Below, one piece after another: positions 1,320 to 57,470 of a stretch of DNA of 64,000 bases; positions within the stretch are counted from its first letter, which is position 1; each line of letters starts with the position of its first letter. The notes below the pieces were generated by a model that saw only the letters and a list, made by a program, of their open reading frames with translations, had not been told where the DNA came from and searched no databases. The DNA is taken from the IMG/VR virus record IMGVR_UViG_3300021964_000039, positions 16,019 through 80,018 of that record; one strand, given 5' to 3'. The position numbers and the translations under genes are program-made. The stretch comes from a virus.

Positions 1320-2175
1320 TAGAGGCTATCATATACCTTATCTTGAATGGATGATCACAACTAGTTGTGATCTAGCCTGTCCAGGATGTGATAGATTTAT
1401 AGAATACGATCATAATTGGACTGAAAAATTACAAGACGTCAAACAGCGTATGGTTAAATGGTCAAAAAAGCTAGATCCAGATAATCTGACATTAATAGGC
1501 GGTGAGCCGTTAATACATCCTGATTTATATGATATTATTAAACATGCTGCAAAATGCTTTGACCACAGCACTATAGAAATATATACTAACGGACTTTTAC
1601 TACACAAAAAACCAAAATTATATAATACATTACGTAAGATTGGCAAAGCAAAGTTAAGTGTTACCTTACACAATAGGGATCCACAAATAAGAAAATGGAT
1701 TAATTATAACTTAGATAAACAATTTTTTCAAAAAGATAAATGGCGCAAAGTTGGAAAAAACTATTGGACTAGCGGAAATATTGAAATAGAAATAACCGAC
1801 CCCACCAAAGGCGGTTGGTATGAATACCGCAAGAAAGTTAATGGACAACTGAAGCCATGGAATGATAATAATATAGAAAGTAGCTATAGTAACTGTACAG
1901 CTAACATTTATCCTATCATTTATAATAATAAGTTGTACAAGTGCCCTCCTATAAGTATGTTACTAACACAAGCAAAAAAATATGGTTTGTTAAATGATAA
2001 AGATTGGGCACCTTATGTAAATTACACTCCATACAGTGTTGATGATAATTTAGAAGAATTTATTCAAAATATAAATTGTCCTCATGATATTTGCAATATG
2101 TGTCCTGCAAACCCTGTTCTTATAGAACAACCTGAGGCTGAAGTAAAGCATAATATGGAGAAATTAGTCATATGA
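1312..2175 (+). CDS. Radical SAM protein
   Basis: CDLACPGC (CxxxCxxC), GGEP, TNG, and C-terminal Cys residues (KCPP, CNMCP). Confidence 0.9.
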   Translation: MTDRGYHIPYLEWMITTSCDLACPGCDRFIEYDHNWTEKLQDVKQRMVKWSKKLDPDNLTLIGGEPLIHPDLYDIIKHAAKCFDHSTIEIYTNGLLLHKKPKLYNTLRKIGKAKLSVTLHNRDPQIRKWINYNLDKQFFQKDKWRKVGKNYWTSGNIEIEITDPTKGGWYEYRKKVNGQLKPWNDNNIESSYSNCTANIYPIIYNNKLYKCPPISMLLTQAKKYGLLNDKDWAPYVNYTPYSVDDNLEEFIQNINCPHDICNMCPANPVLIEQPEAEVKHNMEKLVI

Positions 2176-3344
2176 AAAAAATTCCTGTCTATGAGTTAAA
2201 CCAAGCTGGCAGAGTATTTTCATTACTCACAGAAAATTTTTCAAATGTTTTAAACTTTACATATGGACATAATAATTATGACACAAAAAAATCTCTATTG
2301 TTTATTGAATATGTTGGGTTAGACTTAGGTGTATTAGATACATTAAGAGAGCTTTCTCTAAACACAAAGAAAAAATTCTTCTTGGTTATTGACGATACAT
2401 ATGAAGGATTACTTTCAAAAGAAGTACTACAAAAACATTTAGAATATATAGAATCATTACACGAAGTAATAGACGAATTTATAATTTTATCAGCAAACAA
2501 AAGTATTTTTAATGAAATGGTAAATTTAGGTTATGAGAAAAACTTTATATACTTTAACACTCATTTATATCTTAGCAAGTACGATGGTATTGATATACAA
2601 AATTCTACTGTCAGTGAAAGTGATTTACTAAGAAAGAAAAAATTTCTTTGTTTGAATAGACAAGAAAGACTTCATAGGATACTAGTAGTAGACCATCTAT
2701 GTAAGACTAAGCAACAAAGGCATGGTTTTATTAGTTGTCCGTTGTCCGACTATGGACTTGCATTTGAAAAAAAATTAGATTCAAGTTACTCGGAAGTTTT
2801 ATTTTTTGATAAAGCATTATTAGATTACAAGTTCACTGATGAACAAAAAAATAGACTTAGTTCTATTTTACCTTTAGAATTAGACGTTCCAGATGAAATG
2901 CACAAAAGTTTGCGCAATGAAATGCCAGATACAAAAGCATATTTTGAAGAAAGTTATTTTAGTATAATCACTGAAGGTGATTTCTATACAGAAAACAAGC
3001 GCCAAATGTTCACAGAAAAAATTCTCAAAGCATTTATATATAAGCATCCTTTTGTAGTTGTAGGGTTGCCTGGCACATTATCATTGCTAAGAGAACATGG
3101 ATTTTTAACATTTCCGCAAATAATTGATGAGTCATATGATTCAATTGAAGACGATACAGAAAGATTAAATGCATGTTTAAGAGAGATTGACAAATTACTA
3201 TCTTTAAATATTCACGAACTGAAAGATTTATATGAAAGTATAAACCCTATATTAGAACATAATAGAAAACTAGTGCTACAATATAATGCAATGCCAGCCC
3301 CGTCTTTACTAGTTAATATTATTCAGCAGTGGTTTTATAATTAA
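2172..3344 (+). CDS. Conserved phage protein, possibly GT-B-like
   Basis: FLCLNR..R.HR, YFSIITE, TEKILK, HPF and SYD motifs; starts overlap with the upstream gene. Confidence 0.55.
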   Translation: MKKIPVYELNQAGRVFSLLTENFSNVLNFTYGHNNYDTKKSLLFIEYVGLDLGVLDTLRELSLNTKKKFFLVIDDTYEGLLSKEVLQKHLEYIESLHEVIDEFIILSANKSIFNEMVNLGYEKNFIYFNTHLYLSKYDGIDIQNSTVSESDLLRKKKFLCLNRQERLHRILVVDHLCKTKQQRHGFISCPLSDYGLAFEKKLDSSYSEVLFFDKALLDYKFTDEQKNRLSSILPLELDVPDEMHKSLRNEMPDTKAYFEESYFSIITEGDFYTENKRQMFTEKILKAFIYKHPFVVVGLPGTLSLLREHGFLTFPQIIDESYDSIEDDTERLNACLREIDKLLSLNIHELKDLYESINPILEHNRKLVLQYNAMPAPSLLVNIIQQWFYN

Positions 3345-30747: not shown

Positions 30748-31182
30748 ATGGCCAAATTCGCTCAGGGTAAGTTTAAACCCAAAAATCCTGACAAATATAT
30801 GGGAAACAGAACTCCTACTTATCGCAGTAGTTGGGAATTTGCATTTATGAGATTTTGTGATGAACATCCTAGTGTATCAAAATGGGCTAGTGAGAGTATT
30901 AAAATTCCTTATAGGAATCCATTAACAGGTAAGCAAACAATTTATGTTCCTGATTTTTTTGTAGTATATATTGACAAAAAAGGAAAACAACGAGTTGAAC
31001 TAATAGAAGTCAAACCCGAAAATCAAACTATAAGAGAAAAGTTAGGTAGAAGCAAAGCAAATCAGGCGCATTGGGTTTTGAATCAAGCAAAATGGGAAGC
31101 GGCTAGAGCATATTGCAAACAAAAAGGAATATTCTTTAGAATAGTAAACGAGTCTGATATATTTCATAACGGAAGAAGATAA
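30748..31182 (+). CDS. gp4: Head completion nuclease (T4 gp4, TnsA-like)
   Basis: PKNP.KY.G, YRSSWE..FM..CD, WASE...IPY, YVPDF, IEVKP, N.AKW.AA. Confidence 0.92.
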   Translation: MAKFAQGKFKPKNPDKYMGNRTPTYRSSWEFAFMRFCDEHPSVSKWASESIKIPYRNPLTGKQTIYVPDFFVVYIDKKGKQRVELIEVKPENQTIREKLGRSKANQAHWVLNQAKWEAARAYCKQKGIFFRIVNESDIFHNGRR

Positions 31183-31799
31183 TGGCAATTATGGTAAAAG
31201 ACCCCTACCACGCAACATTTATACATATTGCAAAAACAGGAGGCAGTAGCGTTACTGTTTGGTTAAAAAGTAATTTTGATGTGTATACTACAAAAACTAA
31301 GATGGGCGCAGATGTATACCAAACTAAAAGAGTATTTGATACAGATAATATTGGTTGGACGTTTTGTACAGTAAGAAATCCTTGGAGGATTGCAGTTAGC
31401 TGGTATAGTTTTTTGTGCTTACAAAATCAAGGACGTATAAAGCATGTATTAGAATCAGATCAGGTGTTATCAAATAAGAAAAAATATAATTTAGATTATT
31501 TGTATGCTGAAAAAAGTAGATTAGAAAAAGGGTTTGAAAGATGGGTAACGTATGGACTAAGAACACCTTTGTGGAAAAAAGCTGAACAGTGTGATTATGT
31601 TATGAAATTAGAAACCATACATAGAGATTTCAAAGAAGTACAAAAAAGATTAGGATGCTATACAGTGTTACCTCATCTTATGAGAAGTGATATTAACCGT
31701 GCAAGTTGGCAGTCATACTATACAAATAAAGAAACTATAGATATTGTAGCAAATCATTACAAAAAAGATATTGAACTGTATGGGTACGACTTCAGCTAA
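31182..31799 (+). CDS. Sulfotransferase (Sulfotransfer_2-like)
   Basis: FIHIAKTGGSS (5'-PSB), VRNPW...VSWY (3'-PB), Y..DI...GY.F. Confidence 0.8.
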   Translation: MAIMVKDPYHATFIHIAKTGGSSVTVWLKSNFDVYTTKTKMGADVYQTKRVFDTDNIGWTFCTVRNPWRIAVSWYSFLCLQNQGRIKHVLESDQVLSNKKKYNLDYLYAEKSRLEKGFERWVTYGLRTPLWKKAEQCDYVMKLETIHRDFKEVQKRLGCYTVLPHLMRSDINRASWQSYYTNKETIDIVANHYKKDIELYGYDFS

Positions 31800-42091: not shown

Positions 42092-42627
42092 AAGCACGAG
42101 AAAGAGTTATTCAACATATACCTAAAGGAGCAATTGGTGTAGAGATAGGAGTGCATCTAGGAGATTATTCGCAAAGAATACTAGATATATCTAAACCTAA
42201 ATTATTATATCTTGTTGACCCATGGACGGTATTTCATAACGACGAACACGCCGACTCGTGGTACGGTGTGAATAATGTTAATCAAAAAATTATGGACGAA
42301 CGCTATGAATTAGTTCTAAATAGATTTGCAGATAATGATGCTGTAAAAGTAATTAGAGCAAAATCTACTGATGCTGCTGATACTTTCGAAGACTTTAGTT
42401 TAGATTATATTTACTTAGATGGCGATCATTCTTACGAGGGCGTATGTGCTGACTTTGACGCTTATTTTCCTAAATTAAAGCGTAAAGGATTTATATACGG
42501 AGATGATTATATTGCAAATAATTGGTGGGGTGCAGGTGTGATTGATGCAGTGCATAAAAATCTCCACGAAAAAGATCTGCAAGTTGTGTTTATAACTGAA
42601 TCACAATTTTGTATTCAAAAGTTGTAA
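42088..42627 (+). CDS. Class I SAM methyltransferase (Methyltransf_24-like)
   Basis: VEIGV..G, VDPW, DYIYLDGDHSYE, GDDY. Confidence 0.85.
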   Translation: MKARERVIQHIPKGAIGVEIGVHLGDYSQRILDISKPKLLYLVDPWTVFHNDEHADSWYGVNNVNQKIMDERYELVLNRFADNDAVKVIRAKSTDAADTFEDFSLDYIYLDGDHSYEGVCADFDAYFPKLKRKGFIYGDDYIANNWWGAGVIDAVHKNLHEKDLQVVFITESQFCIQKL

Positions 42628-43298
42628 TTAAATATATTCAAATCTCTACCGTACAGGCGTTCAACTATACGTCTACTATGTTTTGTATAAACATTTCTAT
42701 AGTTCGGTAGAGATACATTGCTAATATTTCTTATTGGCATTGCTACTTTACTTCCGGTGATTTGCTTTATTTTTTCAAATTCTGTTGCTAAGTTTTCTAA
42801 TTTAATAATATTATCTACTACTATCTTACCATCTATTGTAACATAATCACACATATTAGCCCACGAAGCTAAGTCTCCTTCGCCGCCCGGATAAAAAATT
42901 TTCATGTTACCGTCAAATATTGTCCATGGTTTATGCAAATAATTTTCAACCCATGCGTCAAATCCTTTATGCCAAACTGCAAGTTCATCTTTGACTTGGC
43001 CATTCTTATCTGCTAACTTGTTTATATGAATTTCTAAAATTTGTTTTCTGTATTTGTAAAAACTTAAAGCTCTGTCAAAAGGATTTCGTATTATTGTAAA
43101 GCTAGGCATGTTAGTATTAACAGTAATTAGGTCCGAATGTGTAATCGGAGCATGTATTCTTTCATTTAATTTGCCGTAAGTTTGTTTATACCAACGTCTA
43201 ATACTTGTACCTGCAGCTTTAGGTATGTGAACAAACAAAATTGGGTTGCAATTATTTTTGTTTGTTTTTGGCCAGTAGCTCATTTTTCGTATTCCCAT
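42615..43298 (-). CDS. Sulfotransferase (Sulfotransfer_2-like)
   Basis: FVHIPKAAGTS, IRNPFDR.LS.Y, Y.RD...FNY.F. Confidence 0.85.
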   Translation of the reverse strand: MGIRKMSYWPKTNKNNCNPILFVHIPKAAGTSIRRWYKQTYGKLNERIHAPITHSDLITVNTNMPSFTIIRNPFDRALSFYKYRKQILEIHINKLADKNGQVKDELAVWHKGFDAWVENYLHKPWTIFDGNMKIFYPGGEGDLASWANMCDYVTIDGKIVVDNIIKLENLATEFEKIKQITGSKVAMPIRNISNVSLPNYRNVYTKHSRRIVERLYGRDLNIFNYNF

Positions 43299-55188: not shown

Positions 55189-55864
55189 ACCATATGTATG
55201 CGAATATTGTAATACTGGATACACACGAGAAAAAACTCTTGCAGTGCATATGTGTGAACAAAAACGTAGAGCATTACAACGAAATGAAAAGAGAGTAACA
55301 CTTGGGTATTATGCATTTAACCAGTTCTATAAATTAAGCGCAGGTGCGAAAAAAGAAAAAACATATGAAGAATTTTGTAAATCTCCTTACTATAATGCTT
55401 TCGTCAAGTTTGGTTCGTTTATCAATAATGTGCGTCCCCTATATCCTGAGCGTTATATTGATCATGTTGTGACTAGCGGAGTTAAACTTGATCACTGGTG
55501 TAGAGAAGAGATGTATGAAAAATATGCTATAGAGCTTATCCTTAAAGAAGATGTTACAACAGCTTTAGAACGTAGTGTACAAACTATGTTAGAATGGGCA
55601 AGTGAGAATGAACCTGCGCCCTGGAATCATTACTTTGATCATATCAGTTTAAATAGAGCGGTTTGGCATATAAAGGACGGTAAGATTTCTCCTTGGCTCA
55701 TATTAAATTGTAGTAGCGGTAAGGAAATGCTAAGTAAATTGAATGACGAGCAACTAAATCTGATTTATCATATTATGAACCCAGAACATTGGGCTATGCG
55801 ATTTAAGAGAAATCCAAAAGATGTAGAGTTAGTCAAGGAAATAGTGAAAGAGAGTAAATTATGA
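55166..55864 (+). CDS. Zn-finger (CxxC...HxC) hypothetical protein
   Basis: YVCEYC...HMC; start ATG 55166. Confidence 0.6.
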   Translation: MTSKSNSKPYVCEYCNTGYTREKTLAVHMCEQKRRALQRNEKRVTLGYYAFNQFYKLSAGAKKEKTYEEFCKSPYYNAFVKFGSFINNVRPLYPERYIDHVVTSGVKLDHWCREEMYEKYAIELILKEDVTTALERSVQTMLEWASENEPAPWNHYFDHISLNRAVWHIKDGKISPWLILNCSSGKEMLSKLNDEQLNLIYHIMNPEHWAMRFKRNPKDVELVKEIVKESKL

Positions 55865-56289
55865 AAATACTAATTTTTGGTCTTCCGGGATCAGGAAAAA
55901 GCACCCTTGCAGAACCTTTTGCAGACTTATTAGGTGGTGTTTGGATCAATGCCGACAAAGTAAGAGAAAAATACAACGACTGGGACTTTACTCCGGAAGG
56001 ACGTATTAGACAAGCTCAACGTATGAAGCACTTGGCAGACGGAGTAGTTATGTCAGGAAAAATTGCCGTAGCAGATTTTGTATGTCCAACAGAGCAAGCA
56101 CGTTTAGAGTTTGATCCTGATTACACCGTATGGATGGATACTATTACAGAAGGTCGATTTGAAGATACGAATAAGATGTTTGAAAAACCAGCTTCATATA
56201 ATTATCATGTTGCTAATTGGTTTGATGACACACATGTTCAACTATTAGAAGTTGTCAAAAATTATATGAAGAGCAATGGAAAAAGTTGA
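55861..56289 (+). CDS. cysC: Adenylylsulfate (APS) kinase-like protein
   Basis: GLPGSGKSTLA, NAD.VR, DF..EGR, FVCP...R, FEKP. Confidence 0.75.
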   Translation: MKILIFGLPGSGKSTLAEPFADLLGGVWINADKVREKYNDWDFTPEGRIRQAQRMKHLADGVVMSGKIAVADFVCPTEQARLEFDPDYTVWMDTITEGRFEDTNKMFEKPASYNYHVANWFDDTHVQLLEVVKNYMKSNGKS

Positions 56290-56488
56290 AAAGAAACGGC
56301 ATCTTGCTAAAGCCGTCACTTGGAGAATAATAGCAAGTATTACAACAGCAATAATAGCATTTACATTTGGATTACCCCCAAAAGCAGTAGGTGCAGTATT
56401 TGTTGCAGATTTAATTATTAAGTTTTTGATGTATTATGCCCATGAAAGGTTATGGTACAAACACATAAAGTATGGAGTTAAAGAATGA
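56276..56488 (+). CDS. DUF2061-like small membrane protein
   Basis: R.LAKA.TWRI, YYAHERLW. Confidence 0.85.
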   Translation: MEKVEKKRHLAKAVTWRIIASITTAIIAFTFGLPPKAVGAVFVADLIIKFLMYYAHERLWYKHIKYGVKE

Positions 56489-56898
56489 GTTTCGATTGGC
56501 AAAAACCTACAGCAGAAATGTTAGGAAGATGGCAGCCGTGGCATGATGGTCACACTGCCTTATTTAAGAAAGCATTACTAGAAACAGGACAGGTGTGTAT
56601 TATGATACGTGACGTAGGAGGTATTGTAGGGCAAGATGCAGGCGGTGGACGTACAGTTGCCCAAACTGATAATCCATTTGATTACGACACAGTAGTTGAA
56701 AATATTAAATCAGGATTAGCAGAACATGACTTTACATACGGTGAAGAGTATGTTATAATGCAAGTGCCAAATATTGTTGACATTAGTTATGGCCGAGGTG
56801 TAGGTTATACATTTACACAACACGACTTAGGCGAAGAAATACATAATATTAGTGCTACACAAATTAGAGCTAAATTAAGAGAAGAAGGTAAACTCTAG
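56485..56898 (+). CDS. Minimal HIGH-superfamily nucleotidyltransferase
   Basis: GRWQPWHDGH, NPF, YGRGVGY, ISAT.IR. Confidence 0.8.
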   Translation: MSFDWQKPTAEMLGRWQPWHDGHTALFKKALLETGQVCIMIRDVGGIVGQDAGGGRTVAQTDNPFDYDTVVENIKSGLAEHDFTYGEEYVIMQVPNIVDISYGRGVGYTFTQHDLGEEIHNISATQIRAKLREEGKL

Positions 56899-57470
56899 TG
56901 CCGGATATTGATATAGATTTTGCAGATAGGTCTATTATACTAGATAAGATAATGCATCGTGTTGCTAAACTTGACAACGAAAAGAAGCACAACACAGGAA
57001 TCTATGTCACAGAAATTCCCCACAACCCAATAGATAAATTAAGCACAATTGATTATAAGAGTGCAGAAGAACGTGGATACTTTAAACTAGATTTTCTTAA
57101 TGTAAGTATATACAAAGACATAAGAAATGACGAACACCTAACAGAACTAATGGGTCACGAACCTATGTGGGATTTGCTTACTTACAAAGAATTTAGTGAT
57201 CAATTATTTCATGTTGCTGGACATCATACGGTATTACAAACTATGAAACCTTCAACTATTGAACAATTAGCAGCTGTATTAGCTATAATCCGTCCAGCCA
57301 AGAGGCACCTAGCGAACGAAAGCTGGGAGACGATAATGAAGGAAGTTTGGATTAAACCTGAAGAAGGTTATTACTTTAAGAAAGCACATGCGATATCATA
57401 TGCGATGGCTGTTGTTGTTCATATGAATTTAATTTGTGAAAAGATTAGTGCGCAAAGTGCTGGTAGCTAG
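56898..57470 (+). CDS. dnaE: Miniature DnaE (family C polymerase)-like protein
   Basis: PDIDIDF, KHNTGIY, GYFKLDFL, LA.IRP, YYFKKAHAISYA in only 190 aa. Confidence 0.75.
   Translation: MPDIDIDFADRSIILDKIMHRVAKLDNEKKHNTGIYVTEIPHNPIDKLSTIDYKSAEERGYFKLDFLNVSIYKDIRNDEHLTELMGHEPMWDLLTYKEFSDQLFHVAGHHTVLQTMKPSTIEQLAAVLAIIRPAKRHLANESWETIMKEVWIKPEEGYYFKKAHAISYAMAVVVHMNLICEKISAQSAGS

Follow-up and report, generated by a model that had tools for sequence, protein, structure and literature searches.

How could a phage that encodes a homologue of adenosine 5′-phosphosulfate (APS) kinase obtain its APS? The question is raised by a 64-kb stretch of DNA (the window below) out of the 80-kb IMG/VR phage record IMGVR_UViG_3300021964_000039, in which the gene of the kinase homologue (hereafter the kinase) is followed by those of a DUF2061 membrane protein and of a small nucleotidyltransferase of the HIGH superfamily (hereafter NT). 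To our knowledge, sulfate is activated by only two types of enzyme, the Sat-type ATP sulfurylase and CysDN. We propose, with a probability of roughly 0.6, that NT is a third, minimal and unrecognised kind of ATP sulfurylase, which makes 3′-phosphoadenosine 5′-phosphosulfate (PAPS) together with the kinase. We infer both the specificity of NT for sulfate and its coupling with the kinase. The three genes are as follows.

55861-56289, + strand: APS kinase homologue, 142 residues; Pfam APS_kinase 31.1 bits, cut-off 21.1
56276-56488, + strand: DUF2061 membrane protein, 70 residues with two hydrophobic helices; PF09834 46.7 bits, cut-off 23.1
56485-56898, + strand: NT, HIGH-superfamily nucleotidyltransferase with HxGH and ISxT motifs, 137 residues; GRWQPWHDGH at 14-23, ISATQIR at 122-128

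The first-pass annotation had reported three overlapping genes here, and it was right about their positions. The junctions could be read from the sequence: an ATGA overlap joins the upstream gene to the kinase, a 14-nt overlap the kinase to DUF2061, another ATGA overlap DUF2061 to NT, and a TAGTG overlap NT to the next gene, and the translational coupling extends beyond the three genes to others in a longer chain. They are not chance open reading frames, because more than 6000 proteins match NT and the gene order is kept in 73 of 80 phage loci. No match to Sat (PF01747) was found across the whole 80-kb record, so that the earlier statement that the window has no sat gene holds beyond the window itself. 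The PF01507 family (PAPS_reduct/CysD) was absent from all five related phage records searched, two of which are 92% and 100% complete, CysD and CysN not having been searched in the window's own record; two near-complete phage relatives had neither Sat nor PAPS_reductase-family genes. CheckV gave the 80-kb record a completeness of 22%, which implies a giant phage of about 360 kb, and the public sequencing runs containing the stretch were mostly estuary and marine metagenomes.

Linkage of the kinase and the nucleotidyltransferase

To see how constant the association is, neighbourhoods were counted in 80 phage loci and 80 bacterial loci. The kinase gene lay at most 1 kb upstream of that of NT in 73 loci of either set, and phrog_10255 is itself a fusion of kinase and NT. 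The 178 longer NT homologues were mostly APS_kinase-NT fusions of 250-285 residues, among them gp32 of the Xylella phage Salvo and a protein of the Stenotrophomonas phage DLP_6. Since the two proteins are adjacent or fused almost everywhere, we place them in one pathway, and the check for fusion or co-occurrence with CysC that had been suggested for NT thus gave a positive answer. Fusions of NT to chorismate synthase, DHQS or UCH also turned up and were read as assembly chimeras.

The arrangement recalls the bifunctional PAPS synthases (metazoan PAPSS1/2, 1x6v; the Aquifex Sat-APS kinase, 2gks), in which an APS kinase is likewise joined to a HIGH-superfamily adenylyltransferase, and the fused NT homologues keep the domain order of PAPSS, with the kinase N-terminal and the transferase C-terminal. 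The differences are that the transferase half of those synthases has about 390 residues as against 124-137 in the NT family, that NT fails the PF01747 model, that most of the lid appears to be missing from the kinase, and that in the window kinase and transferase are encoded separately, with the DUF2061 gene in between. The length of NT presumably leaves no room for the N-terminal PUA-like domain that we take Sat to have.

The DUF2061 gene stood between kinase and NT in 28 of the phage loci and in one of the bacterial loci, and is on this account an optional insertion on the phage side. The match to the family model spans residues 10-60. No fusion to CysC was seen among the longer DUF2061 homologues, the family occurred in two of 61 Bacteroidota genomes in uninformative neighbourhoods, and the literature search gave incidental mentions only. 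A second, independent membrane tie was met in a 395-residue protein (P0389) in which a DUF4118 membrane domain, an APS kinase and NT are fused.

The kinase

The Pfam match of the kinase lies above its cut-off, and the NCBIfam equivalog cut-offs were not reached (26 against 127), which marks the kinase as belonging to a divergent APS kinase subfamily. By single sequence, the best solved relative was the APS kinase 2yvu of Aeropyrum (E 4e-6), and with the family profile the top matches were all APS kinases (E 1.6e-13 to 1e-9). An AlphaFold 2 model (predicted local distance difference test, pLDDT, 92) was compared with solved structures. It matched 2yvu with Z 16.7 (root-mean-square deviation 2.1, 134 residues aligned), CysC of M. 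tuberculosis (4bzq) with Z 15.7, and the kinase domains of human PAPSS1 and of the Aquifex Sat-APS kinase with Z 15.0. Gluconate kinases came close behind (Z 14.9), and the values were much lower for dephospho-CoA kinases (Z 10.1-10.7) and for the human nicotinamide riboside kinase NRK1 (Z 9.8).

The P-loop G7-K13 and the residues D32, R35, F43 and R48 did not vary across 17 homologues, which came from phages, SAR11, SAR86 and other sources. In HMMER alignments, these four residues fell on Asp480, Arg483, Phe492 and Arg497 of M. tuberculosis CysC, which hold the ribose, phosphosulfate and adenine of APS (PMC4373884). In canonical APS kinases, a lid of about 30 residues that closes over the active site bears a second stacking Phe and a Lys; here this Phe may lie in the conserved segment RFEDTNKMFEKP (99-110), which was left unaligned by HMMER. 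The kinase therefore has in common with the CysC APS kinases (PF01583; 4bzq, 2yvu) the P-loop, the catalytic Asp, both phosphosulfate Arg residues, the adenine-stacking Phe and the overall fold. It departs from them in length (142 residues as against about 175-200), in the LDGD motif, which reads xNAD with the first Asp replaced by Asn, in its scores below the NCBIfam equivalog cut-offs and in the lid, with a shorter region after strand 4 and about 25-30 residues apparently missing. From the alignments and the model we read it as a genuine but minimal, lid-shortened APS kinase with a conserved APS site. In two SAR11-type loci that adjoin aprBA (L114, 9511-10005; L090, 9511-9999), the kinase has a 27-residue insertion exactly at the position of the canonical lid; kinases of the phage, of SAR86 and of cysQ-linked loci have no such insertion.

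Bacterial neighbourhoods

A scan of species-representative genomes placed the kinase-NT pair on chromosomes of SAR11, SAR86, other marine Alpha- and Gammaproteobacteria, Marinoscillaceae and Marinimicrobia. Four neighbourhoods recurred in these bacteria, and all of them concern sulfur nucleotides. The pair adjoined aprM-aprB-aprA in 15 SAR11-type loci, in two arrangements, convergent or divergent; in 14 loci the pair was immediately preceded, on its own strand, by cysQ, for the phosphatase of 3′-phosphoadenosine 5′-phosphate (TIGR01331 288 bits, cut-off 228.8); in 10 SAR86-type loci it was immediately preceded by a Sulfotransfer_3 gene; and a putative sulfate exporter of the YeiH family was encoded 1-4 kb away in five SAR86 loci. 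No gene of nicotinamide adenine dinucleotide (NAD), coenzyme A (CoA) or flavin metabolism was found among the annotated neighbour families of the 80 bacterial loci, in which not all clusters carried an annotation. The gene of PnuC lay 7 kb from the pair in one SAR86 genome and was far away or absent in the others.

Every apr-linked locus also had a conserved open reading frame of 115 residues between aprA and NT (L114, 10390-10740, - strand). It matched no family, had homologues in 15 loci and travelled with aprM-aprBA in both arrangements.

A FastTree tree of NT (midpoint root, support 0.76-0.998) gathered the phage proteins into one clade, sister to a clade of SAR11 and other marine Alphaproteobacteria and apart from SAR86, which hints at an alphaproteobacterial host or donor. 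Two contigs of metagenome-assembled genomes labelled Gammaproteobacteria and Legionellales (L107, L137) carry a kinase and an NT 56-70% identical to those of the window, with NT inside the phage clade; both contigs may represent phage DNA that ended up in the bins of these genomes.

Distribution in SAR11 and SAR86

ATP sulfurylase is missing from most SAR11, which nonetheless possess AprAB (bioRxiv 10.1101/2022.09.23.509140), and across seven cultured SAR11 strains cysC and aprA are identically distributed and sat is absent (PMC5069961 Table 3). For the present comparison the GTDB family of one SAR11 genome was taken, with 27 genomes at least 80% complete. NT was found in exactly the 19 genomes that bear AprB and in none of the eight that lack it (agreement 27/27; Fisher p 4.5e-7, uncorrected for phylogeny or shared ancestry). 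Sat was present in two of the 27, one with and one without the pair, so that 18 of the 19 carriers of NT had no Sat. CysD was found in none of five bacterial genomes tested. In SAR11, where NadC and NadD are both present, the pair belongs to the accessory genes.

In SAR86, NT was nearly universal (56 of 61 genomes) and Sat was found in none of the 61. AprB was absent from both genomes tested and a strong match to PAPS_reductase or CysD from all six tested, and five of six had strong sulfotransferase matches. Where an organism has sulfotransferases, an APS kinase and CysQ and has no Sat, CysDN or AprBA, its APS must come from another source, and NT, as the adenylyltransferase always linked to the kinase, is the obvious candidate for the enzyme that makes it.

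The same neighbourhoods would suit any enzyme that handles APS, and the physiological need in SAR11 is for the breakdown of APS downstream of AprBA. NT could on these grounds act in APS metabolism other than as a classical ATP sulfurylase, namely as an ADP sulfurylase (APS:phosphate adenylyltransferase), as a subunit that only consumes APS or as a regulator of the kinase. We regard this as unlikely. In enzymes of the HIGH superfamily, HxGH and ISxTxxR bind the beta and gamma phosphates of the nucleoside triphosphate and pyrophosphate (PPi) is released, and both motifs are intact in NT; moreover, the SAR86 genomes and phage relatives tested lacked AprB, Sat and CysD yet have sulfotransferases, and therefore need APS made from sulfate.

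Family and fold of the nucleotidyltransferase

The NT family comprises 6100 proteins after clustering at 90% and 998 representatives at 50%, with lengths of 124-137 residues. The invariant or nearly invariant positions are GRxQPWHxGH, GQVxIxVRD, NPF, VPNI, Y-G-R-x-V-G-Y and ISATxIR; in the NT of the window, besides the two motifs listed above, they are seen as IRD (41-43), NPF (63-65), VPNI (94-97) and YGRGVGY (102-108). Public annotation of the family is generic, 'cytidyltransferase-like' (viral clusters likewise), 'NMNAT' (several JGI homologues) or 'hypothetical', and a literature search returned no described novel ATP sulfurylase of this kind and no paper on NT.

Single-sequence searches of Pfam, NCBIfam and the PDB gave matches below threshold that did not discriminate between families. 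The Pfam matches were CTP_transf_like (E 0.052) and ATP-sulfurylase (E 0.079), the latter with 12.8 bits on PF01747 (cut-off 24.3) over residues 17-47 only; the NCBIfam models of nicotinamide mononucleotide (NMN) adenylyltransferase (NMNAT) gave 23.9 bits against a cut-off of 127 (NF002243) and 18.2 against 181 (TIGR01527). Foldseek found no match in the PDB at E <= 1e-3, with NMNAT, pantothenate synthetase, phosphopantetheine adenylyltransferase (PPAT), TyrRS and Sat all weak.

Several observations weigh against an ATP sulfurylase, the first being the kinship of NT. Its nearest relatives are NMNATs, both by profile (1f9a, E 2e-10; the NCBIfam archaeal NMNAT, 2.6e-5) and by fold, since an AlphaFold 2 model (pLDDT 89.8) matched NadM NMNAT best (Z 10.2), followed by PPAT (9.6) and M. 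jannaschii NMNAT (9.0). The Thermus ATP sulfurylase scored 8.4 over 119 residues of its catalytic domain, and NadR 8.1. A structural comparison of NT with Sat and with NMNAT or PPAT had been put forward as a way to tell them apart; on the model, the comparison leaves the choice of substrate undecided. When the NT profile was compared with a genuine Sat (L170) by hhalign, 23 columns around HxGH were aligned with a probability of 5%, and because only the HxGH helix is covered, NT as a truncated or shortened Sat was rejected. With Sat-type ATP sulfurylases (PF01747; Thermus 1v47, yeast Met3) NT shares the superfamily, the proposed reaction and motifs of the HxGH and ISxTxxR type; it has about one-third of their size, no significant sequence relationship, no RNP in GRWQPWHDGH (that is, no QxRNPxHxxH) and no strict GRDHAG loop. 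Its GRD-like loop has an Asp that is not invariant (YGRGVGY in the window, YGRDVGY in the family consensus), and an equation of this loop with GRDHAG was considered and not adopted.

With the archaeal, NadM and NadR NMNATs (1f9a, 2qjt, 1ej2) NT shares GRxQPxHxGH, NPF and ISxTxxR, the first and last of which we take to be typical of these enzymes. NT differs from them in being about 30-40 residues shorter, in a short conserved Y-G-R-x-V-G-Y loop that replaces the stretch after strand 4, in scores far below the NCBIfam cut-offs and in genomic partners that are APS/PAPS genes, not NAD genes; the HMMER alignments to NMNATs end at residue 85-91. Judged by sequence, NT appears to be an NMNAT-like enzyme without some 25-30 residues between strand 4 and ISxT, with a short Gly/Arg loop instead, a deficit measured on what we take to be the sequence of M. 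jannaschii NMNAT. The missing stretch is presumably where the relatives bind NMN, their large second substrate, and a small anion could fit in that place.

This kinship is the starting point for a second explanation, that the pair is a split NadR-like route of NAD salvage in which the kinase makes NMN from nicotinamide riboside and NT makes NAD, for example against NAD-depleting host defences. Apart from the matches themselves and the JGI annotations, it draws on SAR86: NadC and NadD were absent from all six SAR86 genomes tested, four of which had PnuC, and NT is nearly core there. SAR86 must then have an NMNAT of NadM or NadR type, which keeps the NMNAT reading of NT alive and counts against a sulfurylase. 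We consider NAD salvage improbable all the same, for the kinase belongs to the APS kinases, keeps the Arg residues that bind phosphosulfate and resembles NRK1 much less in fold, the recurrent neighbours in the bacterial loci are aprBA, cysQ, sulfotransferase and yeiH genes with no NAD-related family among those annotated, the SAR11 pair tracks AprB despite NadC and NadD, NT is shorter than an NMNAT in the stretch described, and SAR86 has another candidate. The latter is a conserved protein of 371-378 residues whose N-terminus weakly resembles CinA/PncC and whose C-terminus is a HIGH nucleotidyltransferase domain (GRFNPIHSGH...ISSTILR), encoded at 1486-2601 (- strand) of a locus on a complete SAR86 chromosome (L181) and also present in G098, G101 and G124; it may be the NMNAT of SAR86.

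The second place of PPAT in the fold comparison, and the wealth of glycan biosynthesis genes in the window, would suit a third explanation, by which the pair makes a different 3′-phospho-ADP compound, either as an analogue of PPAT and dephospho-CoA kinase or by way of a nucleotide-activated sugar or glycerol phosphate for phage glycans; glycerol-3-phosphate cytidylyltransferases are similar in size to NT. Canonical CoaD was present in all five bacterial genomes tested, and a replacement of PPAT and dephospho-CoA kinase by the pair was therefore rejected. Also, the kinase keeps the Arg residues that bind the sulfate of APS, the neighbours are sulfur-nucleotide genes and not CoA or glycan genes, and the pair is accessory in SAR11, so that we hold this explanation to be very unlikely.

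The distribution of the pair likewise supplies points against a sulfurylase. The co-occurrence of NT with aprBA may in part reflect shared inheritance of one genomic island. Seven SAR11 genomes carry a Sulfotransfer_3 protein of about 575 residues without the pair and without Sat, from which it follows that a sulfotransferase alone does not require the pair and that the argument from PAPS demand is not universal. Finally, NT occurs without an adjacent kinase in some phages and in Bacteroidota (Marinoscillaceae). In a T4-like phage contig (L037, 8014-11828), a 157-residue NT, with no kinase nearby, is flanked by a UvsX-like recombinase region on one side and a DnaB-like helicase on the other. 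In a Marinoscillaceae locus (L120, 3660-9200), NT without an adjacent kinase lies next to a pyridoxal phosphate-dependent decarboxylase, and 2.5 kb away is a protein with metallo-beta-lactamase and rhodanese domains, possibly a persulfide dioxygenase, which makes this another sulfur-flavoured context.

On balance, the proposal of the first-pass annotation, a minimal ATP sulfurylase acting with a CysC-like kinase, gains substantial independent support from fusion, neighbourhood and distribution in SAR11, SAR86 and other marine bacteria, and has to be amended in that NT is not a shrunken Sat and has NMNATs as its nearest relatives.

Phage sulfotransferases and other genes of the window

Two candidate consumers of PAPS had been named in the window, and both proved to be real matches to Sulfotransfer_2.

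31182-31799, + strand: Sulfotransfer_2 protein, candidate PAPS consumer, 205 residues; PF03567 27.3 bits, cut-off 22
42615-43298, - strand: Sulfotransfer_2 protein, candidate PAPS consumer, 227 residues; PF03567 44.9 bits, cut-off 22

Both genes sit among glycosyltransferase, methyltransferase and heptose-pathway genes, the second beside methyltransferase and GT25 genes. An autonomous PAPS route for the phage's own sulfation had been suggested from them; the phage does carry the two enzymes, but their link with the gene trio is loose, at a distance of 13-25 kb. The expected linkage of pair and sulfotransferase across phages failed to appear, and this adds to the evidence against a sulfurylase given above: no homologue of a sulfotransferase or of cysQ lay within 10 kb of the pair in any of the 80 phage loci, the 92% complete relative (G001) had no match to Sulfotransfer_2 or Sulfotransfer_3, and the phages Salvo and DLP_6 had none to Sulfotransfer_3, the sole sulfotransferase family searched in them.

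Two neighbouring genes were recorded in addition. A DnaE-like fragment of 190 residues (56898-57470, + strand) starts 1 nt inside the stop codon of NT (TAGTG); it matches phrog_11778 'DNA polymerase' (E 2e-60) and weakly Pfam DNA_pol3_finger, and is found 3′ of NT in many related phage loci. A protein with a TnsA-like endonuclease N-terminal domain (30748-31182, + strand; PF08722, E 1e-23) is encoded by a gene that ends exactly at the start of the first sulfotransferase gene.

Proposed mechanism

We propose that kinase and NT would form a two-enzyme module of sulfate activation, in effect a split minimal PAPS synthase. NT would have descended from NMNAT-like adenylyltransferases with the HIGH motif by loss of about 25-30 residues, and would catalyse ATP + sulfate <-> APS + PPi. 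The chemistry appears to fit, as enzymes of the HIGH superfamily split PPi off ATP and the modelled NT aligns to the catalytic domain of Thermus Sat. The kinase would then phosphorylate the 3′-OH of APS (APS + ATP -> PAPS + ADP) and so pull the unfavourable step of NT forward. Sat/CysC systems overcome a strongly unfavourable first step through the pull of kinase and pyrophosphatase, and such a pull would explain the obligate pairing of kinase and NT and their frequent fusion. The phage would in this way supply PAPS to its two Sulfotransfer_2 enzymes in hosts without Sat or CysDN. In SAR11, the reaction would go the opposite way, with NT converting APS + PPi to ATP + sulfate and so completing the AprBA-dependent oxidation of sulfite. 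DUF2061 would perhaps tether the module to the membrane.

Implications

For the family as a whole, we think it slightly better than an even chance that NT is a third class of ATP sulfurylase derived from NMNAT-like ancestors, together with the lid-less kinase the sole means of sulfate activation in SAR86 and giant marine phages, and the 'missing' enzyme of most SAR11. SAR11 and SAR86 are among the most abundant bacteria of the sea and, as far as we know, both have been described as lacking Sat as well as CysDN. Yet APS reductase is retained by many SAR11, and sulfotransferase genes occur in both groups. If the proposal is true, a tiny protein mis-annotated as 'cytidyltransferase-like' fills the gap, and a minimal scaffold for sulfate adenylylation is added to those known. 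It would explain the source of PAPS in SAR86 and in giant phages, which would carry a self-contained supply line for sulfation. It would also complete the pathway from organosulfur through sulfite to sulfate in SAR11, with a gain of ATP at the substrate level in the most abundant heterotroph of the ocean.

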